Below are positions 31,767-60,700 of a stretch of 64,000 bases of DNA, piece by piece (the stretch's first letter is position 1; every line of letters begins with the position of its first letter). The notes below the pieces were generated by a model. The model had not been told where the DNA came from. It did no database searches and saw only the letters and a program-made list of their open reading frames with translations. Origin of the DNA: Candidatus Latescibacterota bacterium (GTDB lineage: Bacteria; Latescibacterota; UBA2968; UBA8231); contig OZ252098.1 of NCBI GenBank assembly GCA_965248355.1, positions 5,376,001-5,440,000 of the forward strand, read 5' to 3'. Made by a program: the position numbers and the translations under genes.

Positions 31767-31798
31767 GGCGGATCCCTCTCTTTCCGTGTCCGGGCAGC

Positions 31799-34288: not shown

Positions 34289-34361
34289 TCCCTTGCTCCC
34301 GGTAGAGAGAGTATGACGGCCGCCCGGAGACGGGGAGACGGGCAACTGCAGCACGAGGTCC

Positions 34362-34376
34362 GCACTCGTTGTGCCG
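34362..34376 (-). promoter_or_regulatory. Possible sigma54 promoter upstream of the FlgD-tail gene array
   Basis: Minus strand CGGCACAACGAGTGC keeps GG-N10-GC spacing and GGCAC; two deviations from consensus. Confidence 0.35.
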
Positions 34377-34457
34377 AAGCGCTTCTCAAGTGCAAAGAGA
34401 GGGAGGAATACATCCCCTCCCTCTCTTCATGGAACCAAACGGATAACTAACCGGTGT

Positions 34458-36560: not shown

Positions 36561-37802
36561 TCAGATCAGCGCCCCGTCCCCGGAGAAGCGCATGGGCTCG
36601 AACTCGCCCAGGCGCTCCAGGTCGGGGTGGTCGCTGTCCCGGGCCAGGGGCTCGCTGAGCTGCACGTGCTCCACGCTCAGGGTGTTGCGGATGCGGGCCG
36701 CCCGCAGTGAGGCGCCGTCGTCGATGCGCAGGACCTCGAGCATGGAGGCGATCGCCTCGCGGTCGTCCCCCTTCACGATCGGTACGTAGGCCCGGTTGAG
36801 GAAGGTCGAGGTGAAGGCGTTGGCGTAGGTGGCCTCGAAGTCGATGGAGTCGAAGAGCTGACGGGTGATCACGTCGGCCAGGCCCACGCCGTTGGCGTTG
36901 CCGTGGGTCCTCTCGGAGAGCCTGCGCACGAAGATGCGCGAGACCCCGGGTTCGTCGGGCTCGGCCACGCCGGGCAACAGGAGGCGGCCGATGACGTTGG
37001 TGTCCATGCCGGTGCCGGAGATGTCCTTGCCCATCTCGTCGACGATCAGCAGGTCGATGCCGTTCGCCAGGATGCGGGGCATGTTGCTGCGGGCGACCTC
37101 GAGCAGGCGGGCCTCGCCGCACAGGATGTCGCTGGGGGGCAGGGCGGTGACGCTGGCCGTCTGGTCGTAGGCGTTCTCCACGAGGGCGACGCCGGCGAGA
37201 ACGTTCAGGCGGCCGAGGAGAGCGGCGCCCAGGGCCGGGATCAGCCGCGCCAGGCCCTCGGCCCCCTGGCCATGGGCCATGGTCGCGCCCCGGTGGCAGC
37301 CGAGACCGATGGCGAGCATCTTGACGACGCCGCTCTCGTGGGTGCCGCGGAAGGAGGTGTGGGGCTTGACGCGGTTGATGACGATCACGCCGTCGGCCTC
37401 CAGGGCCAGCCGGTTGACGAGGACGGGCGTGCCGTCGTCGAGGCGGCCGACCTGGACGACCTCCATGGTGGCCTCCACCGGACAGCCCATCTCCTTGGGG
37501 CCGAGGCCGTAGCTGTCCAGCACCTCCTTCTGGCCCTCGGCCGTGGCGCCGCCGTGGCTGCCCATGGCGGGCAGAATGAAGGGCCGGCCCCCGGCGGCGC
37601 GTACCGCGTCGACGACGGTGCGGGTGATCGCGGGGATGTTGGAGATTCCGCGGCTGCCGCCGGTGACGGCGACGCGCTGGCCGGGGCGGATGCGCCCGGC
37701 GAGGCCGCAGCGCTCCAGCTCGGCGGAGACGGCGGCGGCCACGTCGTCGAGGCTCTCGGCGGCGAAGCGCTGCCGGAAGGGGGCCATCCGGGGGAAGGAC
37801 AA
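36561..37802 (-). CDS. Lactate racemase (LarA/DUF2088-like) domain protein
   Basis: VAVTGGSRGI, PAMGSHGGATAEGQ, NRVKPHTSF, GKDISGTGMDTNVIGR, HGNANGVGLAD, RIRNTL. Confidence 0.75.
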   Translation of the reverse strand: MSFPRMAPFRQRFAAESLDDVAAAVSAELERCGLAGRIRPGQRVAVTGGSRGISNIPAITRTVVDAVRAAGGRPFILPAMGSHGGATAEGQKEVLDSYGLGPKEMGCPVEATMEVVQVGRLDDGTPVLVNRLALEADGVIVINRVKPHTSFRGTHESGVVKMLAIGLGCHRGATMAHGQGAEGLARLIPALGAALLGRLNVLAGVALVENAYDQTASVTALPPSDILCGEARLLEVARSNMPRILANGIDLLIVDEMGKDISGTGMDTNVIGRLLLPGVAEPDEPGVSRIFVRRLSERTHGNANGVGLADVITRQLFDSIDFEATYANAFTSTFLNRAYVPIVKGDDREAIASMLEVLRIDDGASLRAARIRNTLSVEHVQLSEPLARDSDHPDLERLGEFEPMRFSGDGALI

Positions 37803-37806
37803 GGGG

Positions 37807-38373
37807 CTATCCCACCAGGGCGCCGCGCAGGTCGTGAGCGCGGTCACGGATCGGTCTCGACGGCGTCGGCACCGGCTCGCCGCCGGGCTCGAGGCGCCAG
37901 ATGAAGACCGCCGGACCCTCGACCTCGAAGTGCATGGGCAGCATGCGGTCGAAGTCCTCCGGGGCGTCGATCGTGTGCACCTGGTGCAGGCCGGCTGCGC
38001 GGGCCATGGCCTCGAAGTCGACGACCCCGGCACCCGGCACGGGCTGATTGCCGGTGACCTCGTAGGTTCCGTTCTCGGTGATGATCAGGCTGTAGTTGCG
38101 GCCCCCCCCCTGGGCCATGGTCACCAGCGTCCCCAGGCACATCAGGGTGGAGCCGTCACCGTTGAGACAGAGCACGCGCCGCCCGGGCTGCGCCAGGGCC
38201 AGCCCGTAGGCCAGGTCGGCGGCGTGGCCCATGGCGCTGTCCACCGAGGCGAAGTCGAGAGGCGTGTCGGACAGCTCCGCCCAGGGCATGGCGACACTCA
38301 TGGTGGTCACCACCACGTCGTCCTGGCGCCGGGCCGCGGCGAGCTTCCTCAGGCAGCGGTACTTGTCGAGCAC
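37807..38373 (-). CDS. ThDP-dependent decarboxylase beta subunit (ComE/phosphonopyruvate decarboxylase-like)
   Basis: AMGHA, ThDP motif GDGSTLM...ENGTYEVTGNQP. Confidence 0.82.
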   Translation of the reverse strand: MLDKYRCLRKLAAARRQDDVVVTTMSVAMPWAELSDTPLDFASVDSAMGHAADLAYGLALAQPGRRVLCLNGDGSTLMCLGTLVTMAQGGGRNYSLIITENGTYEVTGNQPVPGAGVVDFEAMARAAGLHQVHTIDAPEDFDRMLPMHFEVEGPAVFIWRLEPGGEPVPTPSRPIRDRAHDLRGALVG

Positions 38374-38884: not shown

Positions 38885-40078
38885 TCAGACGAAGATCGAG
38901 CGGTTGGAAATGCCGTAGGCGAACCCGGACTGCTGCACGCCGCCCACGTACTGGGCCGTGCGCCCGGCGGGCACCGTGCCCTCGTACCACTGCGTGAAGG
39001 CGGGGTTGAAGGCGGCGAGAGAGTCCCGGTTGGCCGCGGCGTCGGCGCCCGCGCCGATGTAGGCGTTGTTGAATACCCCGTCGGCCTTCAGGCCCCGGCC
39101 CCCGGCCTCCTTCACGCGGGCGTCGACGCCGTCGAGGATGTCGCCGGCGTCGTGACCGGCCACGGCGCTGACCATGGCCTCGGTGATGCCGCCGTGGCGG
39201 ATGGCGGTCCAGGTGCTGAAGCCGTGCTCGAGGCGGCCGGAGCGGAGGATCTCCACGCCGTCGCCGCTGACCACGCGGGGCTGCGGCTCGACGACCCCGT
39301 CGAGGTTGGGGATCCGCGACACCGGGTAGATCAGCCCCGCGGGCCGGTGGTCGCCGAAGTAGTCCTCGAAGACCTCGCGCACGATGTCGATGCGGCTCCA
39401 GGCCTGATCCGGCGCATCGTCGACGGCTACGAGGATCTCCATCCAGACCGTCTGCGTGCGGAAGTCGACGCCGGCCTCGGCGAGGGGCCTGGCGTACTGC
39501 TCCTCGAGGACGAAGGCCATCTCGCGGGCCACGTCCGGGCCGAGGGTGGTGATCGTCTCGCCGTCCTTGCGGTGCATCACCGAGGCGCCGCTCGGCTGAT
39601 GGTCGGTCCACGACCCGAAGTCGAGCCGGCCGCCGCCGATCTCGACGTCGCCCGCGGCGGCCTTGATCTGGATCTCGAAGAGCGCCGCCGGGTCGGGGAA
39701 GCCCTCGGGGTGGGTGAAACGGGCCATCCGGTTGGAGCGCATCGGCCCCCCGGTGACCACCTGCAGCATGGCGCCGTACACGGCGTTGAAGGCGTTCTTG
39801 CGGGCGTCGCACTCATCCCGCGAGGAGGAGGGCGTCGTCCACAGGACGTCGGTCTTGTACACGTCGGACCAGTGGGCCTTGCCCAGCGCCAGACCGGCGT
39901 TCAGGTTCTCGATGGTGCCGAACCACTCCGAGCCCACCTCGTTCGGGTACTGGGTGCCCACGTTGCCGCTGGGCTCCACGAGGCGGGTGACCTTGCTCTC
40001 GTCGTCGATCTGCACGACCTCGCAGGTGCCGCAGAACACGGCGCCGGGGCGATGCCGGATGATGTGTACCTCTGCCAT
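38885..40078 (-). CDS. Hypothetical protein with possible RidA/YjgF-like repeats
   Basis: Good coding bias; recurring AFNAVYG, VFEDYFGDHRPA and AFNPAFTQWY...RTA segments resemble RidA-fold helices. Confidence 0.5.
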   Translation of the reverse strand: MAEVHIIRHRPGAVFCGTCEVVQIDDESKVTRLVEPSGNVGTQYPNEVGSEWFGTIENLNAGLALGKAHWSDVYKTDVLWTTPSSSRDECDARKNAFNAVYGAMLQVVTGGPMRSNRMARFTHPEGFPDPAALFEIQIKAAAGDVEIGGGRLDFGSWTDHQPSGASVMHRKDGETITTLGPDVAREMAFVLEEQYARPLAEAGVDFRTQTVWMEILVAVDDAPDQAWSRIDIVREVFEDYFGDHRPAGLIYPVSRIPNLDGVVEPQPRVVSGDGVEILRSGRLEHGFSTWTAIRHGGITEAMVSAVAGHDAGDILDGVDARVKEAGGRGLKADGVFNNAYIGAGADAAANRDSLAAFNPAFTQWYEGTVPAGRTAQYVGGVQQSGFAYGISNRSIFV

Positions 40079-40195
40079 CGGGTCTCTTCCGCTTCCTTAT
40101 AGGTGATGTGAGGGGATGGGCGGCGTGCGCAAACCACCAAAGATACGGGTCCCCGCGCGGCTCTTCAAACCGGGGGGCCCGTCCTGACCGGCGCC

Positions 40196-40924
40196 GTGCT
40201 TCTCGCCAGGGAGCCCGTCGCCGGGAAGGCGAAGACCCGTCTGCAACCGCGCCTGACCGCCGGCCAGGCGGCCGGGCTGTACGCCGCCTTCCTGCGCGAC
40301 AGCGCCGCCAACCTGGCCGCCTCGACGGCGCGCAGAAAGATCGTGGCCGTGGCGCCGCCCGAGGGCGAGCCGGCCGTCCGCGCCCTGCTGGACGGGTACG
40401 ACGGGCTGACCTTCGAAGGGCAGCCCGGGGGCTCCCTCGGAGAGCGCATGGAAGTCCTGTGCCGCCGCGCCGTCGGCGCCGGCTGCGGACGCGTCGTCCT
40501 GCTCGGTTCCGACAGCCCCTCGTTGCCGGCTCCGTCCATCGACGAGGCCCTGCACCGGCTGCGCGCTGCCGACGTGGTGATCGGTCCCAGCGTCGACGGG
40601 GGATACTACCTCATCGGTCTGCGGGCCGAGGCGCTGCCGGCGGCGGCGCCGGCGCTCTTCCAGGGGATCGAGTGGGGTACGGGGCGGGTCCTCGAGCAGA
40701 CCCTGGCGGCTCTGCCCGGCGGGCTCCGCCTGTCGCTGATGCCGCCTTGGTACGACGTGGACGTGCCGGCGGCGGCGGCCTTCCTGCGCGCCCATCTGGA
40801 GGCGCTGGCCCGGAGCGGCGACGAGAGCACCGGCCGCCACTCCCGGGCGGCGCTGCGCGGCCTCGACCTGCCGCCGCCGAGCCAGGGCCTCGCCGCGCCC
40901 GGCGCCGGGTCTAGAGGCCCATGA
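40196..40924 (+). CDS. DUF2064/TIGR04282 family (CofC-like, GT-A fold) protein
   Basis: AREPVAGKAKTRL, QPGGSLGERM, LLGSDSPSL, IGPSVDGGYYLIGL, WYDVD. Confidence 0.85.
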   Translation: MLLAREPVAGKAKTRLQPRLTAGQAAGLYAAFLRDSAANLAASTARRKIVAVAPPEGEPAVRALLDGYDGLTFEGQPGGSLGERMEVLCRRAVGAGCGRVVLLGSDSPSLPAPSIDEALHRLRAADVVIGPSVDGGYYLIGLRAEALPAAAPALFQGIEWGTGRVLEQTLAALPGGLRLSLMPPWYDVDVPAAAAFLRAHLEALARSGDESTGRHSRAALRGLDLPPPSQGLAAPGAGSRGP

Positions 40925-43567: not shown

Positions 43568-45048
43568 TCTCGCGGGGTCTTCCGGCAGCGGGCGGCCAGG
43601 CCGTCCCACACATCCAGGGAGACCCCCGCCTCGACGCGGCCCTCCCCGGAGCCGGGGAGGAACCGGGCGTGGGCCAGACCGGCGGGGCGGGGGTTGAGCT
43701 CGAGCAGCACGGGCCACACCTCGCCGTCGGGAGTCGCGTCGAGAACCAGGTCGACGCCGCTGAGACCGAGGCCGCCCACGATGCCGGCGGCGGTCTCGGC
43801 CAGCCTTCGCGCTCTCTCCAGGTCCGCACTGCGGAAGGCGACGCTCCGGCCGCTGGCGCGCAGGACCAGGGAGGAGGTCACGCTCTGCAGGGGCCGCATG
43901 CGGCCCCCGGGTCCCCGGGCGGCGGGGGTGTCGATGCCGGCGCCCACCAGGGCGTAGCCGGACTCGGCCCGCAGGCCGGAGGCGCCGGCGGCCACGTGCA
44001 GCCGGATGGCCAGACTGTGGCGGCCACCGGTCTCCGGATCGCGCCAGGCGACGCCGTCCCGCCGCTCTTCCAGGCGCGCCGGACCCCACTCCCAGCAGGC
44101 GCTCAGCTGCGCGTCCAGCAGGGCGTCGGCCTCGGGATCGGAGGCCGACAGGAAGCGCACCCCCTGTCCCTCGGTGCCGTCGTTGGGCTTGACCACGATC
44201 TGACCGGTGCGCTGCAGGAAGGCGCGGGCGGCGAGGCGATGGCCCGGCGCCACGAGTACCCCTGCCGGCACCTCGAGCCCGGCGGCCGCCCAGCGCCCCG
44301 AGAGGCCGTGCTTGTCGTCGGCGGTGGCCGAGGGAGGGCCGGGGTTGACCAGGGGGCAGGTCAGGCGGCGCGCCCAGACCAGGTGGCACCGCGTCTGCTG
44401 CGGGCCCAGGGCCAGCAGCTGCGCCGAGTGCAGGTCGGCCGGCTCCGACAGAGTGGTCTCGGAGAACCGGTCGCGCTCGGCATCCAGCCACAGGACGCGC
44501 CGGGCGCGCCCGTTGCACAGCCAGTCCCCGTGCACGCCGAGGACGCGGTAGAAGGGTCCTCCGGCGCGGGCGTCACGGACGCAGGCGTCGGCGGCCAGGG
44601 GGTAGAGCTCGTGGGTGATGAGGGGAGCCGCGGCAAAGATCACGGCGTGGTTCCAGCGTCCGCCCGGAGGCAGCTTCCGCCGGGGCCCGGTCTCGATGCA
44701 GACCTCCGGAGCCATGGGCTCGCTCACGAGGTCGGCGACGGCGAGATCGACGATGCGGCCGGCGTACTCCCCGTTCGGGCCCAGCAGGCCGCGCACGGCG
44801 GCCACCGCCCCCGGGGCCAGGGCCTGGTCCAGGCCCCCCCCGCCGGCGGAGATCCACTCGCTCCAGGCGCGGCGGCACCGGTCGCGGGCCGACGAGTCCG
44901 GCCCTCCCGGGACCGAGGCGCGCTCGGAGATGAGGTACTTCAGCAGGACGCTGGCCTCGCTCGCCGCCAGGGCCGTCCCGCGGCCGATGCCCAGGCCGTC
45001 GCAGGCCCGCGTCCAGGCGACCTCGAGGTGCCGGTCGTCGTCGCTCAC
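43564..45048 (-). CDS. ATP-grasp fold ligase (RimK-like)
   Basis: LVNP...ADDK...GLEVP, IVVKPNDGTEGQGV, GVDLVL, LLELNPRPAG; GTG start overlaps the upstream stop (GTGA). Confidence 0.78.
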   Translation of the reverse strand: MSDDDRHLEVAWTRACDGLGIGRGTALAASEASVLLKYLISERASVPGGPDSSARDRCRRAWSEWISAGGGGLDQALAPGAVAAVRGLLGPNGEYAGRIVDLAVADLVSEPMAPEVCIETGPRRKLPPGGRWNHAVIFAAAPLITHELYPLAADACVRDARAGGPFYRVLGVHGDWLCNGRARRVLWLDAERDRFSETTLSEPADLHSAQLLALGPQQTRCHLVWARRLTCPLVNPGPPSATADDKHGLSGRWAAAGLEVPAGVLVAPGHRLAARAFLQRTGQIVVKPNDGTEGQGVRFLSASDPEADALLDAQLSACWEWGPARLEERRDGVAWRDPETGGRHSLAIRLHVAAGASGLRAESGYALVGAGIDTPAARGPGGRMRPLQSVTSSLVLRASGRSVAFRSADLERARRLAETAAGIVGGLGLSGVDLVLDATPDGEVWPVLLELNPRPAGLAHARFLPGSGEGRVEAGVSLDVWDGLAARCRKTPRE

Positions 45049-48000
45049 CGATCCCTCTCGAGGGCCCGCAGGTAGTCCTCGCCGGCACGGCTGAGGTCGC
45101 GCAGCACGATGCGGGCGTTCTCCCCCACCCGGTCGCAGTCGAAGGGCCGGCCGCCGGCGTCGCTGGCGGCGCGTTCCCGGGCCTCCTCGCGCAGCGCCAC
45201 CCGGTCCCACAGGCCGACGCCGATGTTCGGCTCGATGAGGACGACGCGCCAGCCCGACAGGGTGCCCGGGAAGCGTCGGTCTCCATGCTGGAGGATGAAC
45301 ACGGGCTCGACTCCGGGCTGGCGGTTCACCTCGACCAGGTCCCCCGGCTCGGCGAACTGCGGCGTCACCAGGAAATCGAGCATCATGTAGCGCGGCGTGC
45401 CGTACGACAGACCGGTCAGGTCGCGGCCGACCGGACGGCCGGTGTCGCGGCGGTAGGCATCGGCGCTGCGCCCCTCGTACGCGCTCAGGGCCTCCATGAC
45501 CCGGCGGGCGGCGGCGGCCAGGCCGTCGAACAGGGCCTGCCGGCACGAGGGCTGCACGATCTCGGGGAGGAACCGCTCCAGGCTGCCGCCGCGGCCGACG
45601 TTGGTGATCAGCTGCTTGCTGTTGAGGGTGATCCAGTGGGACAGGTGCCAGCGCTGCTCGAGGGGCAGGTCGGCGGCCGGATCGTCGGAGGAGACGATCA
45701 CCCGGTGCGATCCGTAGATCGGCGACCGCGGCCGGCGCCGGCGCTCGACGGCGGAGCCCCACTCGACGACCTGGCGCCGCACGAAGGAGTCGATGAAGTC
45801 GTCGGTGGCCCAGGCCTCCGGCGAGGACAGGATCACCTCCTGGATGGCGACGTTGTGGCGCAGGCTGATCTGGTAGATGAAGTCGACGGCGCGCTCGAGC
45901 TCGGTCTCGTCGAGCGAGGTGGAGGCGAGCCGCCGCAGGACGAAGGCCCGGGCGTTGCGCCCCCCGGACTCGGCGGCGTCCTTGATCATCACCAGGCGGT
46001 GGTGCCGGGCGAACTCGCGCAGCCCGGGGTAGTCCGACCCGTCCAGGCCGTTCTCGATCGACTTCCTGGCCGCCCCCTCGGAGGACGCGCGCCGGGTGTC
46101 GGCGGCGAGCCAGTCGATCTCGTGGGGCACGTCGACGCCGGAGGCGGCGACGAAGATGTCGGGGTACTTGGCCTTGTCGTAGGTGGTCCAGGTGTGGAAC
46201 AGGGACTGCACCGAGTAGGGCAGGCCGCAGTCCTCCAGGCGCCCCTCGTGGTAGCGGGGATCGCCGTGGAAGGGATAGACCACGGCGGCCCTCAGGGGGC
46301 GGGTGAAGCGCACGGCCAGACGGACCCCCTTGGGGGTGCACTCGGCGGCGGCCTGGGCGGCAGCCGCGTCGGCGTCGAGGCCGCCATGGCGGACCAGGGC
46401 CGCCGCGTATTCCTCCCGGGAGACGTGGAGGTGGCCGGAGCAGACCTGCACGACGGGCCGGTCTTCCCCCTGGCCCTCCACCAGGTCGACGCCGCGGCTG
46501 ATGATCAGGTTGGCCCCGGGCCGTCCCGCCGCGGTCAGCTCGCGGGACAGGGTCGGACCCTCGACCAGGGCCCGGGAGTAGTGGGTGCGGCCCACGGGCA
46601 GGGCGATCAGGTGGTTGACGCGCCGGTCCGCGTCGATCAGGTCGGGATCGAAGGCGGCGAAGACGGGGGGGATCGGGAAGCCGTCGTTGCGCATGAAGGC
46701 GAGCTCGCGCAACTGTCCGTAGGCCCGCCAGCGGCGCTCCCACTCCGAGACGGCGGTGACGCCGATGGGGTCGACGGCGACCTCGCCTTCGTAGCGGCCG
46801 AGCAGCAGATCCCGATCCTGGAGCGTCCGCCCGGCCAGCTCGGTGTGATGGGTGACCACGTGGCGCAGGTAGCGGCCGAGCCATCCGTGGTGCTCGACGG
46901 CCAGCTCGTACAGGGCGTCGCCCGAGTACCCGGCGAACCCGACCCCCCGGGAGTAGACCCAGGGCCGGTACTCGTGGAAGTGATCGTCGATCGTCTCGGC
47001 GAAGAAGTCGGTCAGGGCGCGCCAGAGGCCCTCGGCGTCGGGCGGGGCCCCCGGCCGGGTGCAGGGCAGGGTCGTCTCCAGGGCCAGGAGGATGTAGAGC
47101 AGCTCGGCCCCGGCCGCCACCTGCCGCAGGCCGTGACCGGCGCCGCCGGCCCCGTCGCGCTCGACCACGGCCTGGGCGAGGCGTCCAAAGTCCCCCACGT
47201 CCTCGTAGCCGCCGGCGATCCGCCGCCAGTCCTCCGGGTCGATCTCGGGGCCGAGGAACAGCTGCGACAGGTGGTCGTGGAAGCGCTGGGCCTCGTCGGC
47301 GTGGTCCTCGTCGTACTGCTCGCTCACGAGGGCCGAGAGGGCGGTGCGGGCGTGGGCGATGAAGGCGCCGAAGGCCGCGTCGGTGACCGCCCCGCCGCCG
47401 TCGCCCAGCGCCTCCAGAGCCGCGGCCCTCGCCTCGGCGAAGGAGGCCGGCCGGCCGTCGACGGACTCGGCGCCGCGATGCCGCTCGTGGAGGGCCCGGG
47501 CGCGGAGGATGCGGGCCCGCAACTGGCTGCGGGCCTCGAGAGCGGCGGCGGGCTGGTCCTCGGCCGCCTTGTTCGAGCTCTCCAGCCCCTTCTCCTCGCG
47601 GAACTCCTCCAGCTCCGGGGGCCGGGCCGGGTGCAGGAGCAGGCTCTCCAGCTCCCGGGACTCCGCGTCTCCGGCTCCAAGGCCAAGGTCCCGGCGCCAG
47701 CCGTCGATCTCTTCCTGGGGGGCTCCGTCGAGTAGGAAGAGGCCGCCCAGGACGAGGAAGTCGGCGAAGGTGGCCCGCTCCAGGGGCAGGCCGCCGGCGA
47801 GTCGGGCCAGGGACCGGGAGACCAGCTCGTCGCGTCGTCGCAGGCGTCCGAAGCGGCGCAGCTTGTCGACCTCGCCCAGTTGCTGCTCCGCCTCCTGACC
47901 GAGGCGCACCTCGGCGAGGATCCGCTCGTACTCGGCGGCGGCGGCCTCGGCGTCGCCGCCGCGCCGGATCTCGGCCAGGCGCCGCGCCCGCCGCCGTTGC

Positions 48001-51000
48001 CGCCGCATGGCCTGGCGCCAGCCTTCGACGGTCCGGCTCCCCAGGCCGATGCCGGCGTAGACCGGCTCCCGGCCGTGGCGCTCCCCGGCGGCGAACCAGA
48101 GCATGACGTCGAGCCGGTTGAGGGCGCGGCGCCGGGCCCCGGAGGCGCCGTCGACGATGACCAGGGCGCTGTCCGGATTCCCCTCCAGCATCAGCCGGCA
48201 GACCGCCGCCGGGTCCTCCAGGAGCCGCAGCAAGCCCCGGTGGGGGATGCCGGTGTCGAGGACGTCGGCGCCCTGCAGGGCCCGTTCGTACGAGCGCTCC
48301 GGACCGAGGACCTGCAGGGCCAGGGCGTGGAGCCGGCCGCAGAGCCGCCGCGACAGGTCGGCCCGGAGGCTGTCGTCAACATCGGCCGCCGTCGCCCAGC
48401 GCTCGAGGTGGGGGCCGTAGGTGGCCAGGCTGGCGTCGATCTCGGCGTTGCTGAACCCGGCCGCGGCCAGCTCCTGGCGGGCCCCCTCGGCGATCGCCTC
48501 CAGGCTCGTGTCGCTGGTATAGCCGAGCAGGTCCTGGGTCGAGAGGCCGGTAGGGGACACGACGCGGATCTCGGCCGGCCGGGGCGGCGCGGGGAACAGC
48601 TCCCGCAGGAGGCCGGGGGTCGCCGGATCGCCGGCATCGAGACCGAGGGCGGCGGCGGCGCGGTCGGCCCGGCCGCGGCCCTCGACCCCGTCGAACCCGT
48701 CCGACAGCAGTCCCGCCAGGGTCTGCCCCTCGGCGTCGAGGGCGTGGAGCAGGTGGTCGGCCGTGCCGCACAGGATCTCGAACTTGCGCATGCCGGCGGC
48801 GAACCGGCCGTCCTGCGTGTCGGGCTTGTACTCCGCGGTGAGCACCACCACCGGGGCGGCGGCGACGCCCTCGTGACGGCGGGCGGCCTCGGCCAGGGCC
48901 CGCCGGGTCAGCCAGACCTTGAAGAAGGGCATGAAGCGGTTCACGTGCTCGGCGCCGGCCACCATCTTGTGCACGCCCCAGCGCGCCACCCGCGCCGTGG
49001 TGGCGCGCTCCGAGTCCCGCAGCTCGGGCTGGCCGAGCCCCTCCAGGACCTCGGCCAGGCGCGTGATCTGGAAGACGGGGACGGGTCCCCGCTCCCCCTC
49101 CCGGACGGCGAACAACCTGCCGAGGCCGGCCACGTCGCCCAGAACTCCGGCGGCCCAGGCCTCCCACTCGAAGCGCGCGGCGAAGTCCTCGCGGCGGCCG
49201 AGGATCCCGACGGCGGCGCGGGCGACCCCGTCGTGGTGCTCGGCCGGCACGCCGAGCTGACGCAGCTTCTCGGCGCGGCCGAGGGTGAGGACGAACTCGA
49301 GGAACAGGCCGTCCTTGGGCACGCAGTAGCCGCCGTAGCCCTCGCCGGCCGGATGGATCACGCGGTCGCCCCGGCGGCTCATCTGGTCGCCCATCTCCTC
49401 GATGTCGCCGTGGCCGCTGGCCGAGACCATGAGGGACAGGGCGTTGGAGAAGGCGAGGTGCGAGGCCATGCTGGCGTTCTCGCCCGTCTTGAGGATCTCG
49501 GGCTCGGTGAGGCTGTCGTAGCTGCGCACCGACTTGTTGATCAGCCCGTAGATCTCTCGTCCGGCCCGCGCCGAGGCGCGGTCGGCGCCGCCGACCCACT
49601 GCGACCAGGTCTCCACCGACTCCCGCTCCCGGTGGCCGAGGTCGACCCGGCTCGGGGTGTACAGCAGGTGATAGCGCTTGTCGCCCCCGGCGGCTCCGTA
49701 GCGGTGGGCCGGATCGAGGCTCAGGTGGGCCAGGCCGTGGCTCAACAGCACCTGCTTGCGGGCCGTGGTCTTCGCCAGCCGCGAGAACCGGCGCAGGTAG
49801 GTGCGCCGGCGGTCGTCGCCATCGGCGCCGCCTTCGCGGGACCACTCGGCCAGCAGCCGGCGCCGGGCCAGGAACCGGGTGAAGCTCTCCAGGTCCTGTC
49901 GGTAGTCCTCGTCCCCTTCCACGACGCGCACCAGGGCGGCCGGCCGCGACAGGGCCGGCTCGGCGGCGCGCAGGGCGGCCACCTCCTCCTCGAGCTGACG
50001 GCCGTTGCGCGCCGCCACCCGGTCCAGGGCCTCGCGGGACAGCTCCTCGTCCCGGGCCTCGCACAGCCGCCCGATTTCGGCGGGATCGGAGACGTCGCCG
50101 GCCTCGCGCTCGCCGCCGCGTTCCTCCGCCAGCTCGAGCAGGGCGCCCAGGACGGCGACCTCCTCCTGCACCGTGCGGTTGCGGCCGACGACGCGCGACA
50201 CGGCCGCGCTCTCGTCGAGATCCTCCTCGGCGGCGGTCTCCTCCACCTCGACCCGGATCCCCAGCTCGCGCACCACCCGCTCCCCGAGGGCGCACAGCCG
50301 CCGGCGGTAGAAGGCCCGTCGTTCGTCGACCTCGGACTCCAGCCCGCGCGCGGCCACCACGTTGTGCAGGGCCATCGACTCCTCGAGCCAGGTGCGGATG
50401 TAGCCGTCGGTCATCCCCGCCGACTGGGTGGTCAGCACGTGCAGCACCGGCAGAGGACGGCGGGGCTCGAGGGCCCCCCGGTGGAGGGACCGGGCGCGGG
50501 CGGTGCCGACCTCGGCCTCGAGATCGACGAGGCTCGACCAGGGCTCCTGCCGGGCGCGGGTCAGGGCATCGGCGAGAGTCGAGCCGGACTCGTCCGACCA
50601 CTCGAGCAACAGGGCGCACAGGGCCTCGAAGGGCTCCTCCTCCTCGCGCTCGATGCGGCCCCGCAGATCGGCGGCGCGCTCCCGGGCGAGGCGCGACACC
50701 AGCCCGGCGGCGCGGGCGATCTCCGCGGACGGGTCGCCCGGCGCGGCGCGGGCCCAGTCGAGGGCGGCGGCCTCGTCCCCGCCCGGGCCGGCCTCCCGGC
50801 ACAGGAGCCAGCGCGCCGCGGCCAGGTACTCGGTGTCGGCCACGTCGCGCAGGTTCGCGGCCCAGTGGTCGGCCATCTCCTCGCGGAAGGACTCCTCCAT
50901 GCCGTCGATGTCGATCACCGTGCGCGTCGACTCGACGCCTTCGTCGTCGACGAGGACCTCCTCCTTTATGAACAGGGGGATGGCCTCGATCCAGTGGTCG

Positions 51001-52559
51001 GAGACCTCCAGCCAGCGGTAGTCGGGGCTGGAGTAGAGGCGGTCGCCGGCGAGGCGCACCAGCTTGGTGAGGTTGTCGGCCTTGCCCAGGTAGGGCTCCT
51101 CGAACTCGTTGATCTTCACCAGCAGGTGCGAGCCGGTGGGGGAGGGGCGCTGGCTGATGACGACGTAGGCGGCGTTTCTCGAGGGGGACCGCAGCAGCTC
51201 GCCGCGCACCCGCTCGACCAGGCCGAGGCGCCGGCGGACGAGGCCGCTCGCCGAATCGACGTCGAGGGCGGTCTCCGGGGCGCCGGCCAGCTCATCGCCG
51301 TGGTCCTCCACCCGGGCGCGGGCCCGGTGCAGTCCCTGCATGAGGTCGTCCCGCTGCGCGTCGAGAACGGCTTCCTCGTAGCGCTCGCAGGCCCCCTCCA
51401 GCTGGATCAGGGAGACCGCCTGGTCCACCTCCAGCAGCAGCCGCAGCTCCAGGGCCGGCGACTGCAGAGCGGCGGCCCCGGCGGCGGCCGTCCAGGCCTC
51501 CTCGGCCAGCGGCTTCCAGGCCGGCGTCGGCGAGAGGCGCACGGCGTCGGCGAAGAGCGTGCCCTGGTTGTGGAAGGCGCGGCTCATGCGGCCGAAGACC
51601 AGCTCCTGTCCCGAGGACCGGGTCTCGCGGGAGAGGCGGCGGATGTTCTCCGCCTCGACCTCGCGGTCGTAGTCGCGCAGCACGCCGTAGAGCAGCAGGC
51701 GCTTGTCGTCCACGTCGGCGTCGCTGTCGAGGATCTCGCCGGCGGCCCGGCGGTCGTAGGGCAGGTCGAGACGATCCTGGCCGAGGAGCCAGGTGATCCA
51801 CCGGTCGCGGCCGTGCGGGGCTTCTTCGCGGCTCGCCCGCCGCAGGAAGGAGGAGAACAGGTTGCCGGCGTCGAGCTCTCCCGAGCCCTCGAGCAGGGCC
51901 AGGAGCACGGCCTGGTCCGGCCGTCCGAGACGGCCGTGGAGGTCGACGACCCAGTGCAGGGCCTGGCGCAGCGAGGCGCCGCGGACGACGTCGAGCTGGG
52001 CGAACAGCCCGAGGGCGAGGAGGAGCTCGACGCCGCGCAACCGCTCGGGCACCTCGGCGCTCAGATCGTCCTTGGCCTCCAGGCCGATCCCGAGGGCGGC
52101 CATGGCGTCGGCGGCCAGCCACAACCGCCGGCCGTCGAAATCGAGGAGGCGCTCGTGGCCCCGGCACAGGACCAGGGGCCGGTCGGTGCCGCGCAGGCTT
52201 GCGGCCAGCTCCGCCAGGCGGGCGTCGCCCTCGAAGCGCCGGGAGACCAGGCGGGCGGACCGTTCGCACAGCCGGGCCGCCAGCGCCGCCTCGGGGCCGG
52301 CGTCGTCGGGAACGGCCACGGACGTGTCGGCAAAGGGGCGGGAGCCGAAGGCCAGGGAACCGGCGGCCAGGATCTCGCCGGGGCCGCGCCGGGCGCGGCA
52401 GATCCCCGTGGGCCGGTGGTGGTCCACGAGCCGGAGGGGAAGGCCCTGGAGGCTCAGCGGCGGGGGCACGGTAACGGGCGAGGTTTCATCCCCGGTCTGC
52501 GGGAGCCGGTCGTCGTTCTTGTCGCCGGGAGAGATCCGGGGGTTGCTGACGGGGGCCAC
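45045..52559 (-). CDS. Giant fusion: nucleotide-sugar (UDP-Glc/GDP-Man family) dehydrogenase-like core plus C-terminal ATP-grasp domain
   Basis: YTPSRVDLG, EILKTGEN, GEGYGGYCVPKD, EYKPDTQDGR (dehydrogenase); YDKAKY, MIKDAAESGG, IQEVI, TNVGRGG, LDFLV, IEPNIG (ATP-grasp); true start may be near 52469. Confidence 0.72.
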   Translation of the reverse strand: MAPVSNPRISPGDKNDDRLPQTGDETSPVTVPPPLSLQGLPLRLVDHHRPTGICRARRGPGEILAAGSLAFGSRPFADTSVAVPDDAGPEAALAARLCERSARLVSRRFEGDARLAELAASLRGTDRPLVLCRGHERLLDFDGRRLWLAADAMAALGIGLEAKDDLSAEVPERLRGVELLLALGLFAQLDVVRGASLRQALHWVVDLHGRLGRPDQAVLLALLEGSGELDAGNLFSSFLRRASREEAPHGRDRWITWLLGQDRLDLPYDRRAAGEILDSDADVDDKRLLLYGVLRDYDREVEAENIRRLSRETRSSGQELVFGRMSRAFHNQGTLFADAVRLSPTPAWKPLAEEAWTAAAGAAALQSPALELRLLLEVDQAVSLIQLEGACERYEEAVLDAQRDDLMQGLHRARARVEDHGDELAGAPETALDVDSASGLVRRRLGLVERVRGELLRSPSRNAAYVVISQRPSPTGSHLLVKINEFEEPYLGKADNLTKLVRLAGDRLYSSPDYRWLEVSDHWIEAIPLFIKEEVLVDDEGVESTRTVIDIDGMEESFREEMADHWAANLRDVADTEYLAAARWLLCREAGPGGDEAAALDWARAAPGDPSAEIARAAGLVSRLARERAADLRGRIEREEEEPFEALCALLLEWSDESGSTLADALTRARQEPWSSLVDLEAEVGTARARSLHRGALEPRRPLPVLHVLTTQSAGMTDGYIRTWLEESMALHNVVAARGLESEVDERRAFYRRRLCALGERVVRELGIRVEVEETAAEEDLDESAAVSRVVGRNRTVQEEVAVLGALLELAEERGGEREAGDVSDPAEIGRLCEARDEELSREALDRVAARNGRQLEEEVAALRAAEPALSRPAALVRVVEGDEDYRQDLESFTRFLARRRLLAEWSREGGADGDDRRRTYLRRFSRLAKTTARKQVLLSHGLAHLSLDPAHRYGAAGGDKRYHLLYTPSRVDLGHRERESVETWSQWVGGADRASARAGREIYGLINKSVRSYDSLTEPEILKTGENASMASHLAFSNALSLMVSASGHGDIEEMGDQMSRRGDRVIHPAGEGYGGYCVPKDGLFLEFVLTLGRAEKLRQLGVPAEHHDGVARAAVGILGRREDFAARFEWEAWAAGVLGDVAGLGRLFAVREGERGPVPVFQITRLAEVLEGLGQPELRDSERATTARVARWGVHKMVAGAEHVNRFMPFFKVWLTRRALAEAARRHEGVAAAPVVVLTAEYKPDTQDGRFAAGMRKFEILCGTADHLLHALDAEGQTLAGLLSDGFDGVEGRGRADRAAAALGLDAGDPATPGLLRELFPAPPRPAEIRVVSPTGLSTQDLLGYTSDTSLEAIAEGARQELAAAGFSNAEIDASLATYGPHLERWATAADVDDSLRADLSRRLCGRLHALALQVLGPERSYERALQGADVLDTGIPHRGLLRLLEDPAAVCRLMLEGNPDSALVIVDGASGARRRALNRLDVMLWFAAGERHGREPVYAGIGLGSRTVEGWRQAMRRQRRRARRLAEIRRGGDAEAAAAEYERILAEVRLGQEAEQQLGEVDKLRRFGRLRRRDELVSRSLARLAGGLPLERATFADFLVLGGLFLLDGAPQEEIDGWRRDLGLGAGDAESRELESLLLHPARPPELEEFREEKGLESSNKAAEDQPAAALEARSQLRARILRARALHERHRGAESVDGRPASFAEARAAALEALGDGGGAVTDAAFGAFIAHARTALSALVSEQYDEDHADEAQRFHDHLSQLFLGPEIDPEDWRRIAGGYEDVGDFGRLAQAVVERDGAGGAGHGLRQVAAGAELLYILLALETTLPCTRPGAPPDAEGLWRALTDFFAETIDDHFHEYRPWVYSRGVGFAGYSGDALYELAVEHHGWLGRYLRHVVTHHTELAGRTLQDRDLLLGRYEGEVAVDPIGVTAVSEWERRWRAYGQLRELAFMRNDGFPIPPVFAAFDPDLIDADRRVNHLIALPVGRTHYSRALVEGPTLSRELTAAGRPGANLIISRGVDLVEGQGEDRPVVQVCSGHLHVSREEYAAALVRHGGLDADAAAAQAAAECTPKGVRLAVRFTRPLRAAVVYPFHGDPRYHEGRLEDCGLPYSVQSLFHTWTTYDKAKYPDIFVAASGVDVPHEIDWLAADTRRASSEGAARKSIENGLDGSDYPGLREFARHHRLVMIKDAAESGGRNARAFVLRRLASTSLDETELERAVDFIYQISLRHNVAIQEVILSSPEAWATDDFIDSFVRRQVVEWGSAVERRRRPRSPIYGSHRVIVSSDDPAADLPLEQRWHLSHWITLNSKQLITNVGRGGSLERFLPEIVQPSCRQALFDGLAAAARRVMEALSAYEGRSADAYRRDTGRPVGRDLTGLSYGTPRYMMLDFLVTPQFAEPGDLVEVNRQPGVEPVFILQHGDRRFPGTLSGWRVVLIEPNIGVGLWDRVALREEARERAASDAGGRPFDCDRVGENARIVLRDLSRAGEDYLRALERDR

Positions 52560-52764
52560 CTTCGGGGAGCTCCCGGCCGCCGGCGGGAAGGCAAGCCCGG
52601 CCGGTGAGGGATGGAAGGAGGGAAATTAGACCCCCGCGGAAAGGCGGGCAACACCGCCTGGGGGGGCTCTCCCCTCGGGCGGGATGCCCTTCGCGCCTGC
52701 AGAAGAAGAGCCGCCCCGAAGCGTGGGGAAGGGCCGTTGAGGGCCTCCCTTCAGGCGGCCGCGG

Positions 52765-53645: not shown

Positions 53646-54044
53646 TCACCTGCGGGTGGTCCGGGCGCGCCGGGCGCTGGCGAGCAGGGCGGACACGTCC
53701 GACAGCAGGGCCTCGTTCTTGAAGGGCTTTTCAAGCACCCGGTCGGCGCCGGCGATGCTGGCCAGAGTCGTGGCCAGTTCCGGGTTCTGGTGCATGCCGC
53801 CGCCGGAGATGGCGATGATGCCGAGGGCGGGATGGCTCTTGCGCAGCTTCTTGATCAGCTGGACGCCGGTCATCCCCGGCATGTTCACGTCGGTCAGGAG
53901 GATGTCCGGACCGTGGGAGGCCACGCTCTCCAGGGCCGCTTCGGAGCGGTCCGCCTCGAGGACCTGGTACCCGGAACGCCGCAACAGCATGGCCAGCGCC
54001 GAGAGGACGCCCTCGTCGTGCTCGGTGATCAGGACGGTGGCCAT
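53646..54044 (-). CDS. Single-domain response regulator (receiver)
   Basis: LITEHDE, LTDVNMPGMTG, ISGG, LEKPF. Confidence 0.9.
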   Translation of the reverse strand: MATVLITEHDEGVLSALAMLLRRSGYQVLEADRSEAALESVASHGPDILLTDVNMPGMTGVQLIKKLRKSHPALGIIAISGGGMHQNPELATTLASIAGADRVLEKPFKNEALLSDVSALLASARRARTTRR

Positions 54045-54047
54045 GGT

Positions 54048-55055
54048 TCAAGCCTCCGCTTCGGACCTGGGGATGAGGATCTCGAAGGCCGTCCCCTCGC
54101 CGGGCGACGACTTGACGGTGATCTTGCCATGCCATCCCTGGACAAAGCTGTCCACCACGGCCAGCCCCAGGCCCGTGCCCTTCCCGGTCTCCTTGGTGGT
54201 GAAGAAGGGCTCGAAGACCTTGTCCCTCACCTCGGGCGCCATGCCGGTGCCCTCGTCGGCCACGGTCACGCGGACATACCGGCCCGCCGCCAATCCCCGG
54301 GAGCGTGCGCCCCGGGCGTCGAGGGTGAGGGCGTCGAGGCCGATCGTTACCGTGCCCTTCCGGGTCATCGCCTCGGCCGCGTTCTTGAGCAGGTTCGTCA
54401 ACACCTGCCTGAACTCCGTCGGGTTGACGCGGATGGCGCCGGTCTCCTCCGCGATCCGGGTCTCGATCTGGATGCGGCTCCGGTAGGAGTCCTGGGCCTC
54501 GGCGGTGAAGTCCGCGAGATCCCGCGCCGGCGCCACTTCCTCCGGCTCCTGGGTGCCGCCGGCGGGGAAGGCCAGGGTGCCCTTGACGATCTCGGAGCCG
54601 TGCTCGGCGGCCTTGAGGATGTGCCGCATCCGGCTGCGGCGCTCCTCCGGCGAATCCTCGCGGTCGAGGCTGATCTGGGCCAGGGTGATGATGGGCTGCA
54701 GGACGTTGTTGAACTCGTGGGCGAGACCTCCGGTGAGGGCTCCCATGGCCGCCATCTTGCAGGCTTCGCCGAGCTGATCCTCCGTGGCCCGGCGCTTCTC
54801 CACGGCCTGCGCCAGGCGGGCTTCCGTTCTCTTCAGCTCGCGGTTCAGCCGCGAGGCCTCGCGCCAGCGCTGCGCGGCGAACCAGACGATCACGAGGGCC
54901 AGGGCGGGCACGGCGGCGAGGGCCTCGCCGAACTCCCACTTCCGGTAATGGCGCGTCATGTCCAAGAGGGCCTCGACCAGGTCGATCCTGGCGAAGGCGT
55001 AACCCATGAGGGCACAGGCGAAGGCGCCGATGATCAGGTCCCTGGAGGCTTTCAT
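54048..55055 (-). CDS. Membrane sensor histidine kinase
   Basis: Two TM helices; H-box GGLAHEFNNVL, N-box QVLTNLLKNA, DEGTGM, FEPFFTTK, GTGLGL. Confidence 0.9.
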   Translation of the reverse strand: MKASRDLIIGAFACALMGYAFARIDLVEALLDMTRHYRKWEFGEALAAVPALALVIVWFAAQRWREASRLNRELKRTEARLAQAVEKRRATEDQLGEACKMAAMGALTGGLAHEFNNVLQPIITLAQISLDREDSPEERRSRMRHILKAAEHGSEIVKGTLAFPAGGTQEPEEVAPARDLADFTAEAQDSYRSRIQIETRIAEETGAIRVNPTEFRQVLTNLLKNAAEAMTRKGTVTIGLDALTLDARGARSRGLAAGRYVRVTVADEGTGMAPEVRDKVFEPFFTTKETGKGTGLGLAVVDSFVQGWHGKITVKSSPGEGTAFEILIPRSEAEA

Positions 55056-57795: not shown

Positions 57796-60700
57796 TCAGC
57801 CCTTCAAGTCAAACAAATCGCCTTTGGTTGCTTGCGCCGTGGGCGGTTTGCGCATCTCCTCCGGCACCGGTGGCAATTCCTCGGCTTGGATGCAATCGCT
57901 CGCGACGACGGCTTCGAGTAACCTCTCCTGTTCGGGATAGCAGTTCACCGTTTCTTCCAGGACCCAAAGTAACTCGAGTAGTTCCGTCGTGAACTGACTG
58001 GTCCAGCCCTCGGGGCGGATGTCGTCGAGGGGGGAGGACTTCCTGCCCGCCCCCTTTTTCATGCGGTACTTGAGCCAGGACCGCACGACCTTGAGACCAG
58101 AGACCTCGAACTCGTACACGGCGGGTTCGACAGGCGAAAACTCCCCACCGCTGATACGGAGAGTCCTGGCCCCGTCGTCATAGACGAATTCCTCTGCAGG
58201 GCGGGGGATGGCCTCGACGCATCTTGCGGCACCGGGCGGTATACGCCCGGGGGTCTGGCCCGGAGGCACGAAGCGCTTGGCGTAGGTGTGGAGCCACAGC
58301 AGCCGCGCGCCTGCCCTGCGGATCTCCTCGAAGAGCTGCCCGTCCTTTGTGATCGGAACGCACAGTTCTCTTGTTTCCAGCTCCCTGTCGAACCGTTTGG
58401 TGAAGGCCGGCTGTGCCAACACTCCGTAGAGATAGGCGACGAAGTCTTCGGGTGTGATCTTGCGACCATGTGACGTGCTGAGCACTTCGAGCAGCAAAGG
58501 AGCAATGTTCGCCTCCGAGGCATCCTGGGCGCGGTAGAGAGGGATAACCTCCTTGGCGCCATAGGAGCCTCGAAAATGATGGAGATCGGGAAGGTGAGCG
58601 CAGGAAGTCAGTGCAGGCCCAGATCCCAGAGGTCGAGAGAACAAACTCGTCAAGTACAACTGCCGGTCGCCGTGGACGCGCCATAGATCAGGACGTGGGC
58701 GGGACATCAAGCGACCGTCCGCGACAAGGTAATGCCGGTCGAAAGAGCGATACGCGTACCGCTGGACTTCAGGGAGAGGGGTGTTATTCGGTAGTTTGGA
58801 TATCGGCGTCGAATCGGCCCGGTCTGTCAGAGTGACGAGATAAGACCCATCAATCTTGCGGTCGCCAGTCTCCCGGAATGCATCGGCGCGATCCGCTGCA
58901 TCCAGCAGACTGCGCCAACGCCGTTCCAGCGTGACTGAGTCCGGCGCAATCGGCCATGTCCGCTTGAGCTGCACTCCCGAGTGCTGCCAGGGCATGAGAT
59001 CAGTGAGCAAAGGCCAACTGAAGTAGGCTCCTTGCCCGACTGGACGGAATGGAGCCATCCAGTCATCTGAGCAATCCTGCCACTCCAAGCTGGAAAAGTC
59101 CCGAATGGCGTCGAGGATCGCGAGTTTCTCGCCGCGGGTGCCCTCCACGCGGGTGTAGTGCACGCACGCAGGCCGGTCCTGTCGCACCTCCTGAGAGCGG
59201 AAGGCTACGGCAATGGTGACAGGGGTCTTAATGGCAAAGACGTTGTCATCCTGGCGTGTGCCGCGTCCCTCGCCGCCAAGGTCGAGAATCCAGATCTCGT
59301 CGCACTGCCGGCGCATATGCTCGCGCATCCCGGAGAAAGCGTCGCCGTCGAGGTAGCTGGAGGCGCTGATGAAGCTGACCACACCGGGGCCGTTGGAGGT
59401 CTCGTGTTCGAACACCTTCCACAGCGCCCAGCGCCAGAAATAGACGTAGAGGTTGTAGAGGTTCTTGAGGTGGATCCCATGGCCAGCGGCAACCGCGGGG
59501 TCGAGAAACTCACGGAGAATCGCAGGATCCCCGTCGTCTCCCCAGCGGACCCAGCCGCCGGTGCGGCCCTTGTTTGCGTAGTCGGCCTCGTGCCGGTCGT
59601 AAGGGGGATTGCCCAGGCAGACGATGACGGGGACCGCGCTCTTGACTTCCAGGGCCTTCTTGTGTTGCTCGGCGATGGGCCGCAGGATCAAGGGCATCTG
59701 CGGAGGCTTGGAGTGTGGGCTCTCCAGGGTGTCCGTCAGGTAGATGCGCGTGCCATCGGCGGGCAGCGTTGCCCCGGCGTCCTGCAGGGCAAGGCTGACA
59801 CGCAACTCGCTCACCGCATAGGCGCCTACGAGCAGCTCGAAGCCGTACAGGTTCTCGGCCAGCGCGGCGGCATGGCCGGGGACCGCACCCGGCCCCTGCT
59901 CATCCTTGACGCGGCCGAGGGCGTGTTCTATGACGCCGAGAAGATAGGTCCCGGTTCCCACGGCGGGATCGAGCGTGACCACACCGGGGTCGGCGAAGCC
60001 GAGCGGTTTGCCGAGACGGTGGACGAGCAGGTCGTCGATCAGACGCACCTGGGCGCGGACCACCTCGACAGGCGTGTAATAGACCCCCGTGTCCTTGCGT
60101 AGCTTGGCATCGTAGACGGTGAGGAAATCTTCGTAGAAGTAGAGCCAGGGATCCTCCGGACCGGAGAGCGTGGCTGGCGTCACGGCATCGATCACCCGCA
60201 GCAGCAGGTCCACGGAGGCGGCGATTTCCGCTCGCGCCACCGGATCGGTCAGAACCTGCAACGCCCGCGACAGCAGGTTGTGCTGTGCGGCCAGCGCCTC
60301 TCTCGCGTTCTCGAGGGTGAGCGGGTCGGCCCCTTCGCTGCAGCCCAGCAGCAAGGCGAAGGTGACAGTCTGGGCATAGGCGTCGGCGAACTGCTCGTCA
60401 GAGGCATCCGGGAAGAGCAGTTGCCGCCAGTCCCTCGCGAGCTCGACAAGGGGAGAATCCTGGTCTTTGAGGGCATCTGTCACGTCATCCCGCAACATGC
60501 GACATAGCGGTGCCAGCCGCTTGGCGAACCCTCTGAGGTCGATCTTGCCATCGCCGCCCATGGGGATGAAAGGCTCCCACAGAAGGAAATTGCGCAATAG
60601 GCGTTCGATGGAGCGGGCGTTCTGGGCCGTAACGGCCTTCCTACCGTCGACGCCAACCTCGCCAGAGATACGGACGACCTTGTCGACCAGTTCGCCGTCG

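Follow-up and report, generated by a model that had tools for sequence, protein, structure and literature searches.

A conserved giant protein with a nucleotide-sugar-dehydrogenase-like and a probable ATP-grasp module, encoded beside a second ATP-grasp ligase and a GHMP kinase in a Latescibacterota bacterium

Nucleotide-sugar dehydrogenases of the UDPG_MGDP_dh type, of which 3g79, 4r16, 4a7p and Cap5O (3ojl) are the closest solved representatives for the protein described here, carry a catalytic cysteine in a GG[YF]C[VI]PK[DE] motif, a lysine and an asparagine in K..EN, and a C-terminal YK..D.R motif, while the glutamate of their N-P-E-F/R motif has a role in thioester hydrolysis. ATP-grasp amidoligases (RimK/LysX, glutathione synthetase, Ddl; Pfam families ATPgrasp_ST and YheC/D) show the motif order hhhK...ESGGR, N.GRGG, Asp and E-x-N. 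Cj1438, which belongs to the capsule pathway of Campylobacter jejuni, works with a separate canonical UDP-glucose dehydrogenase (UGDH). The C-terminal TupA-like ATP-grasp domain of Cj1438 amidates the C6 carboxylate of glucuronic acid (GlcA) (PMC11800379). Here we analyze a giant gene in a 64,000-nucleotide stretch of contig OZ252098.1 from a Candidatus Latescibacterota bacterium (hereafter the window), the product of which combines a module resembling the former dehydrogenases with one resembling the latter ligases. Cj1438 serves here as a functional model, in that its ATP-grasp domain converts a uronic-acid carboxylate into an amide; this domain is fused to a GT2 glycosyltransferase, whereas the probable ATP-grasp of the giant protein is fused to the dehydrogenase-like module. 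Coordinates of all features are collected in Table 1.

The giant frame is open across 2504 codons with no internal stop. Its length is weak proof of coding, because DNA of 74% GC yields long spurious frames, and the opposite strand indeed holds open frames of 1575 and 816 amino acids (aa), neither of which had a match in Pfam and both of which are regarded as spurious. The idea that the gene is itself such an artefact, or a set of separate genes joined by misassembly, can nevertheless be considered refuted, with a negligible residual likelihood. The GC content of the first, second and third codon positions is 0.78, 0.50 and 0.95, respectively, and the third-position value stays at 0.92–0.97 across all thirteen 200-codon blocks of the gene. 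A word-indexed search with the giant protein returned 146 homologues; among the 120 matches listed, most were 2400–2680 aa long and covered 90–100% of the query. An identical 2504-aa product is already on record for the same contig. Misassembly is excluded since the source genome is a single contig of 5,503,661 bases and the full-length protein recurs as one frame in 57 loci of other genomes, representing dozens of independent assemblies. Moreover, full-length members, 26 in number and drawn from several phyla, align with a mean column identity of 52% and show no weakly conserved half. The giant gene is a genuine coding sequence, with chance and misassembly both excluded; the single reading frame of about 2500 aa proposed in the initial annotation is thus borne out, and the misassembly it had allowed for is ruled out. 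The position of the start is uncertain by approximately 30 codons, with candidate GTG codons at 52559, 52469 and 52427 in a start-codon scan, and public gene calls of both 2504 aa and 2474 aa exist.

Judged from sequence comparison, the protein comprises four colinear modules: an N-terminal module, a dehydrogenase-like module, a central module and a C-terminal ATP-grasp-like module. The initial annotation had described a fusion of two domains, a nucleotide-sugar dehydrogenase and an ATP-grasp ligase. Both homologies are supported by the analyses below, but the protein is more than a simple two-domain fusion, as around 700 N-terminal and 350 central residues match nothing known. The N-terminal module contains the invariant motifs LVFGRMSRAFHNQ, SQRPSPTGSHLL and HWIEAIPLFIKE, and the central module the motifs EFREEKGxESSNKA and IAGGYEDIGDFGRLAQ. 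For these two modules, profile searches of the PDB and Pfam scans of 35 members gave no match, hhalign comparisons linked neither of them to the remaining modules, to Ddl or to UGDH, and a search of the ESM Atlas gave nothing usable. An invariant SPTGSH was considered as a possible phosphohistidine swivel domain and dropped, as the dictyostelid protein lacks this histidine.

The second module displays the motifs of the dehydrogenase family in the family order (KTT, TPSRVDLG, K1024/N1028, C1079/K1082/D1083 and YKPDTQDGR), and the positions of the catalytic lysine, the catalytic cysteine and EYKPDTQDGR (48804–48833) given in the initial annotation were reproduced when recomputed from the translation. 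The Pfam family PF00984 matched aa 1021–1087 with 26.1 bits (cut-off 25.4), or 31.2 bits in a scan of the whole genome, and TIGR03026 matched with an E-value of 1.8e-15, covering only profile positions 144–274 of 413. At the level of solved structures, 3g79 was matched with an E-value of 4e-7, and 4r16 and 4a7p were also matched by sequence. When 45 family segments were compared by hhalign to 20 canonical UGDHs drawn from related genomes, the alignment extended over 314 columns (probability 97.5, E-value 6e-12) and placed aa 814–1273 of the giant protein on residues 22–351 of the 457-residue UGDH. The key residues are conserved almost without exception among the collected members aligned at the respective columns: C1079 in 178/178, K1024 in 179/179, N1028 in 178/179 and K1082 in 178/178, with Asp or Glu at position 1083 in all 178 and the K, D and R of YK..D.R in 180/182, 181/182 and 179/180, respectively. 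The active-site motifs are kept also in members from Amoebozoa (dictyostelids) and Omnitrophota. On this basis, the region of aa ~814–1273 is homologous to nucleotide-sugar dehydrogenases, in a heavily remodelled form.

Several observations weigh against a fully canonical dehydrogenase and thereby against the reading of the whole protein that we favour below. No match to PF03721 with its GxGxxG loop, nor to PF03720, was found in the window protein, in 12 giant forms (E ≤ 0.001) or in 39 members (E ≤ 0.5). The position where the loop binding nicotinamide adenine dinucleotide (NAD) would be expected, likely the first strand, reads LHVLTTQSAGMT, with T710 and T711 invariant, and the confidence of the hhalign alignment is near zero over UGDH residues 1–100. 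The glutamate of the PEF motif is replaced by Ser970 in 177/177 members (T-P-S-R against s-P-E-f/r), and the TIGR03026 score of 56.7 bits is about a third of the subfamily cut-off of 189.8. In contrast to the UDPG_MGDP_dh enzymes, the module is embedded in a chain of 2504 aa and interrupted by two inserts of ~110 and ~200 aa, the former lying between aa 1090 and 1207. As the GxGxxG/PF03721 match, the PEF glutamate and the alignment over the first ~100 residues all fail, we refer to the module as dehydrogenase-like rather than as a dehydrogenase; the call made in the initial annotation holds for the homology and not for these defining features. The same genome encodes a separate, ordinary UGDH of 457 aa elsewhere.

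With no NAD loop, and with Ser in place of Glu, a reading in which no classical four-electron oxidation takes place is a serious rival. The module would then be independent of NAD and serve as a scaffold or dimerization unit, or use its cysteine for other covalent acyl-enzyme chemistry. We consider this possible but rather unlikely: the invariance of the Cys, Lys, Asn and Asp/Glu residues across bacteria and Amoebozoa would be unexpected for a pure scaffold, YK..D.R is retained, and binding of a dinucleotide by the Thr/Ser-rich loop is still conceivable.

The C-terminal module carries a Ddl-like N-terminal part (PFHGDPRY..EGRLEDCGLPY..YDK), in which the pattern HG...E.G...LE..G.PY...DK is recognizable, followed by the K-loop VMIKDAAESGGRN (IKDAAESGG, 45960–45986), (T)NVGRGG, (M)LDFL(V) and IEPN (45225–45236, with E-P-N at 45225–45233); the last four had been pointed out in the initial annotation and were located as described there after recomputation. 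Conservation among aligned members is very high, with K2193 in 211/212, S2198, G2199 and R2201 in 213/213, N2320 in 215/215, D2395 in 195/195, and E2443 and N2445 each in 182/182. By motif alignment, K2193 is the predicted ATP-binding lysine, and D2395 and E2443-x-N2445 the predicted ligands of the metal (Mg). When a profile of this module was run against 1.84 billion representatives, 129 proteins were collected. One divergent member, P0154 (2445 aa), matched the Pfam family GSH-S_ATP over aa 2100–2162 with 27.1 bits (cut-off 23, E-value 3.3e-6), at the very place where its TIVVKPEKESGGRGARIF is aligned to the K-loop LVMIKDAAESGGRNARAF of the window protein, and six more members (P0237, P0177, P0128, P0156, P0179 and P0182) gave sub-threshold matches to the ATP-grasp clan in the same place. 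In addition, an hhalign comparison of 162 C-terminal modules with the ATP-grasp family encoded by the neighbouring gene (see below) gave an E-value of 1.3e-4 over 441 columns, with the K-loop, N.GRGG and DK motifs in register.

Compared to the described ATP-grasp amidoligases, the module has K followed by D instead of P, is enlarged by extra segments to ~660 aa, is fused behind three other modules, and is too diverged for any profile to detect it in the window protein. This last point counts against the assignment. The window protein has no ATP-grasp match in Pfam at E ≤ 1, and a PDB profile search with the alignment of C-terminal modules (A2) gave no ATP-grasp match at E ≤ 10. The best transitive hhalign comparison with the neighbour family, quoted above, had a probability of only 54%, a first comparison with the same family gave an E-value of 0.18, and that with Ddl, which pairs PFHGDPRY..EGRLEDCGLPY with HG.xGEDG..QG.LE...PY, was non-significant (E-value 0.1). 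Scanning members individually against Pfam produced matches in only 2/38 and 1/38 cases (E-values 0.06 and 0.18), P0154 alone had no ATP-grasp match in the PDB, and a profile of ten divergent modules placed three ATP-grasp enzymes at the top of the PDB list with non-significant E-values of 0.15–2.3. Taking the invariant motifs, the P0154 match and the 441-column alignment together with the lack of a direct profile match to the window protein, the C-terminal module is very probably homologous to ATP-grasp enzymes, in line with what the initial annotation had read from the motifs.

Two genes directly downstream, which that annotation had missed, are both found fused to the giant protein in other lineages. 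The first encodes a 494-aa protein, and its GTG start overlaps the TGA stop of the giant gene (GTGA). It matched ATPgrasp_ST (31.5 bits, cut-off 31.4) and ATP-grasp_3 (29.6 bits, cut-off 23.2) in Pfam, its family profile (A4) matched RimK, LysX and Ddl in the PDB with E-values of 3e-7 to 1e-5, and the hhalign comparison with Ddl gave an E-value of 9e-7; by these comparisons the family is clearly ATP-grasp. The second gene, the start of which overlaps the stop of the first in the same manner (GTGA), encodes a 631-aa protein with a GHMP-family sugar kinase part at aa ~233–615 (GHMP_kinases_N 27.5 bits, cut-off 22.3; GHMP_kinases_C 26.0 bits, cut-off 21), preceded by ~230 unassigned N-terminal residues. 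The fucokinase part of NF009948 was matched with an E-value of 1.3e-34 and the fucokinase structures 9iip/5yys with ~5e-18; matches to structures of fucokinases and heptose kinases together spanned E-values of 5e-18 to 1e-10. The protein thus matches the GHMP kinase domain of FKP, an L-fucokinase/fucose-1-phosphate guanylyltransferase, and of heptose kinases of the HddA/WcbL type, but, in contrast to FKP, no nucleotidyltransferase domain was detected in the 631-aa gene; a hexapeptide-repeat domain occurs only in one distant fused relative, P0188.

The identity of the closest solved relatives of the 494-aa protein bears on two of the alternatives. Within the NAD-independent rival, the giant protein could be a large ATP-grasp ligase, or a template-independent synthetase of oligomers or polymers resembling cyanophycin synthetase, an enzyme matched by the profile of the neighbouring ATP-grasp family in the PDB with an E-value of 4e-4; the presence of two ATP-grasp domains per system also fits this. 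RimK and LysX, on the other hand, add amino acids onto protein C-termini, and the two ATP-grasps could act like peptide ligases of the RimK/TTL type in modifying a macromolecule, either a protein or a cell-envelope polymer, with the large N-terminal and central modules as substrate-docking surfaces. We regard such a role as very unlikely, given that the anomeric-type sugar kinase, together with an aldose 1-epimerase gene located just upstream of the giant gene in the cultured methanotroph Methyloglobulus morosus (L024:227–1120, plus strand), indicates metabolism of free sugars, and that no carrier-protein gene is conserved alongside the giant gene.

The linkage of the three genes is widely conserved. 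The C-terminus of the giant protein is contained in 52 of the 57 related loci, and the ATP-grasp gene follows directly in 37 of these; of the remaining 15, seven offer no more than 1.1 kb of sequence downstream and eight truly have no ATP-grasp gene nearby, although in two of these eight genomes the ATP-grasp and kinase genes are found together on another contig. Where the downstream flank reaches 3.4 kb or more, as in 40 loci, a GHMP kinase gene follows the ATP-grasp gene in 22. It was not found near the giant gene in the other 18, a point against the reading favoured below. Counted among the 22, the cultured Methylococcaceae Methyloglobulus morosus and Methylovulum miyakonense encode short GHMP kinases of 334–346 aa (L024:10644–11648 and L032:19000–20040) that lack the ~230-aa N-terminal extension of the window kinase.

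Further evidence comes from gene fusions. In 38 of 42 collected relatives longer than 2700 aa, amoebozoan proteins among them, a second ATP-grasp domain is fused behind the C-terminal module, giving the order N-terminal module, dehydrogenase-like module, central module, ATP-grasp 1 and ATP-grasp 2, and in 8 of 12 giant forms scanned GHMP_kinases_N was found near the C-terminus. In one locus (L022:16800–20075, plus strand) only the ATP-grasp and the GHMP kinase are joined, in an open frame of 1092 aa, a fusion state that is, by sequence, intermediate between the three-gene and one-gene forms. These Rosetta-stone fusions of the giant protein, the ATP-grasp and the kinase argue that the three genes of the window act together. 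Two split relatives begin with the C-terminal ATP-grasp module and have further domains behind the kinase, P0188 a hexapeptide-repeat (LbH) domain and P0239 a methyltransferase. Giant forms of 5000–7944 aa are longer by 1500–3300 residues at the N-terminus, for which no family has been matched so far.

A conserved partnership of this kind is difficult to reconcile with a simple enzyme of two activities, whose canonical nucleotide-sugar 6-dehydrogenase would form a uronic acid and pass it to the C-terminal ATP-grasp with no need of partners. The support for both homologies and the family-like order of the motifs are compatible with such an enzyme. In light of the amidation of GlcA by the ATP-grasp of Cj1438, the direct channelling of the C6 carboxylate to the ligase that the initial annotation proposed is plausible and chemically sound as an idea, though incomplete. 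The second ATP-grasp and the sugar kinase of the conserved unit, the roughly 1,000 further conserved residues that it leaves unexplained, and the several defining dehydrogenase features in which the module fails nonetheless make the simple bifunctional enzyme improbable.

Instead, we favour, at what we judge to be an even chance, a conserved megaenzyme family of four modules that works as a unit with the second ATP-grasp ligase and the GHMP kinase, whose genes are translationally coupled to that of the giant protein. In the scheme that we infer, which extends to the reaction order, the substrate class, the NAD dependence and the product, the GHMP kinase would phosphorylate a sugar, and Cys1079 would act by thiohemiacetal/thioester chemistry on a primary alcohol or aldehyde group of the substrate derived from the sugar. 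The carboxyl or acyl group so formed would then be joined to amine partners by the two ATP-grasp domains, in two ATP-dependent ligations mediated by acyl phosphates that would create two successive amide (or ester) bonds, and the product could be an amidated sugar acid or a short conjugate. The approximately 1,000 conserved residues with no assignable function stand as a point against this proposal as well.

The family has a broad and patchy distribution. Records come from Latescibacterota, Gemmatimonadota, Methylococcaceae, Armatimonadota, Omnitrophota, Handelsmanbacteria, Planctomycetota and a Leptolinea, and within the phylum of the window the gene is found in 46 of 168 genomes and 18 of 49 genera. 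Fused homologues of 2800–4200 aa are also encoded by Amoebozoa, both dictyostelids (Acytostelium, Heterostelium, Polysphondylium, Dictyostelium purpureum, D. citrinum and Synstelium) and others (Clastostelium and Mastigamoeba), several of them on multi-megabase contigs. PPL_02104 from Heterostelium shares 28% identity with the window protein over ~2600 columns and keeps the cysteine and the lysine. In a quick, midpoint-rooted FastTree phylogeny of 65 C-terminal modules, from which no direction of transfer is drawn, the amoebozoan sequences were placed inside a clade of fused bacterial forms. Names on record are either "hypothetical" or automatic domain names, and no paper on the family was found in the full-text literature, a scope outside which subscription-only papers lie.

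A tight series of genes on the minus strand, as judged by frame plot and start-codon scan, continues from the giant gene through the FabI-like reductase and two genes of 247 and 397 aa to a gene with a LarN-like domain. The FabI-like, 397-aa and LarN-like genes are syntenic only in 16–17 loci, labelled Latescibacterota or Gemmatimonadota, and may be mere neighbours of the system. The 397-aa protein is 67–93% identical across the 17 related loci, which is unusually high for an unnamed protein. Upstream, the histidine kinase and response regulator genes, both present in 20 of the 57 loci, are possible regulators. A terminator-like hairpin between an upstream 202-aa gene and the giant gene weakly suggests that the latter starts its own transcript; such sites numbered one, against 3.4 expected in shuffled sequences. 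No sigma-70-like promoter was found, and no Rfam match at the gathering score, as for a riboswitch or RNA leader, between 36000 and 58000. A role in anti-phage defence was also considered and rejected, neither the giant protein nor any of five neighbours having a match in PADLOC. Elsewhere in the window, a 1099-aa gene (57796–61095, minus strand) combines a Type ISP C-terminal specificity domain with an N6 DNA methylase domain and lies in a stretch with a GC content of 0.60–0.63 against about 0.70–0.74; it probably represents an acquired single-chain restriction-modification enzyme. Three further genes (16219–18960, plus strand; 28521–31841 and 31799–34426, minus strand) encode large proteins ending in CHU_C/FlgD_ig-type domains, which are type IX secretion sorting signals, and beside them lies a 1013-aa gene (25712–28753, minus strand) with no family match.

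Table 1 Features of the giant-gene locus and its surroundings. Positions refer to the window; approximate module borders are given in residues of the encoded protein.
Feature	Position	Strand	Basis
Giant gene, 2504 aa (stop included)	45045..52559	-	single continuous conserved frame
N-terminal conserved module, aa ~200-690	50490..51962	-	alignment A5; invariant motifs
Nucleotide-sugar-dehydrogenase-like module, aa ~700-1490	48090..50462	-	Pfam, NCBIfam, PDB, hhalign, conserved residues
Lys1024 codon (family catalytic Lys, K..EN)	49488..49490	-	EILKTGEN; aligns to Lys of 3g79 and 4r16
Cys1079 codon (family catalytic Cys, GGYCVPKD)	49323..49325	-	GEGYGGYCVPKD; aligns to GGHC.xKD of 3g79 and 4r16
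Central conserved module, aa ~1490-1840	47040..48092	-	alignment A6; motifs
Derived ATP-grasp-like module (probable), aa ~1840-2504	45048..47039	-	motifs, transitive profile evidence
Second, separate ATP-grasp ligase gene, 494 aa	43564..45048	-	Pfam, PDB profile, hhalign
GHMP-family sugar kinase gene, 631 aa	41672..43567	-	Pfam, NCBIfam, PDB
FabI-like short-chain reductase, 255 aa	40911..41678	-	Pfam adh_short_C2, E 1.8e-79; 17/57 loci
247-aa gene	40097-40840	-	no Pfam/NCBIfam match; syntenic in 4/57 loci
397-aa gene	38885-40078	-	no Pfam/NCBIfam/PDB match; syntenic in 17/57 loci
507-aa Lar_N/DUF362 gene (nickel-pincer lactate-racemase-like N-terminal domain)	36561-38084	-	Pfam; syntenic in 16/57 loci
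Terminator-like hairpin followed by T-run	52633..52648	-	
Receiver-only response regulator	53646-54047	-	Pfam Response_reg
Histidine kinase, cytoplasmic	54048-55049	-	Pfam HATPase_c, HisKA

The mean column identity of 52% across phyla, together with the fusion into chains of 3,500–5,700 residues (maximum 7,944) from Omnitrophota to dictyostelids, indicates strong selection on the family, which probably marks an undescribed metabolite or conjugate. It also constitutes a natural experiment in how the active site of UDP-glucose dehydrogenase may serve again when the usual NAD loop and the hydrolytic glutamate are missing. Homologues in the cultured, harmless Methylovulum miyakonense HT12 and Methyloglobulus morosus KoM1, as well as in genetically tractable dictyostelids, make its function directly testable. 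A more far-reaching reading, which we put forward as speculative and on balance unlikely, is that of an ancient self-contained machine, composed of the sugar kinase, the Cys-dependent oxidoreductase-like module, the two ATP-grasp ligases and the N-terminal and central modules, making a novel metabolite or oligomer common to several bacterial phyla and Amoebozoa. As the PEF glutamate is an invariant serine and the classical NAD loop is absent, the thioester bound to the cysteine may pass to a nucleophile other than water, unless the cysteine carries out a different reaction; if true, this would be a reaction type undescribed for the UDP-glucose dehydrogenase family.

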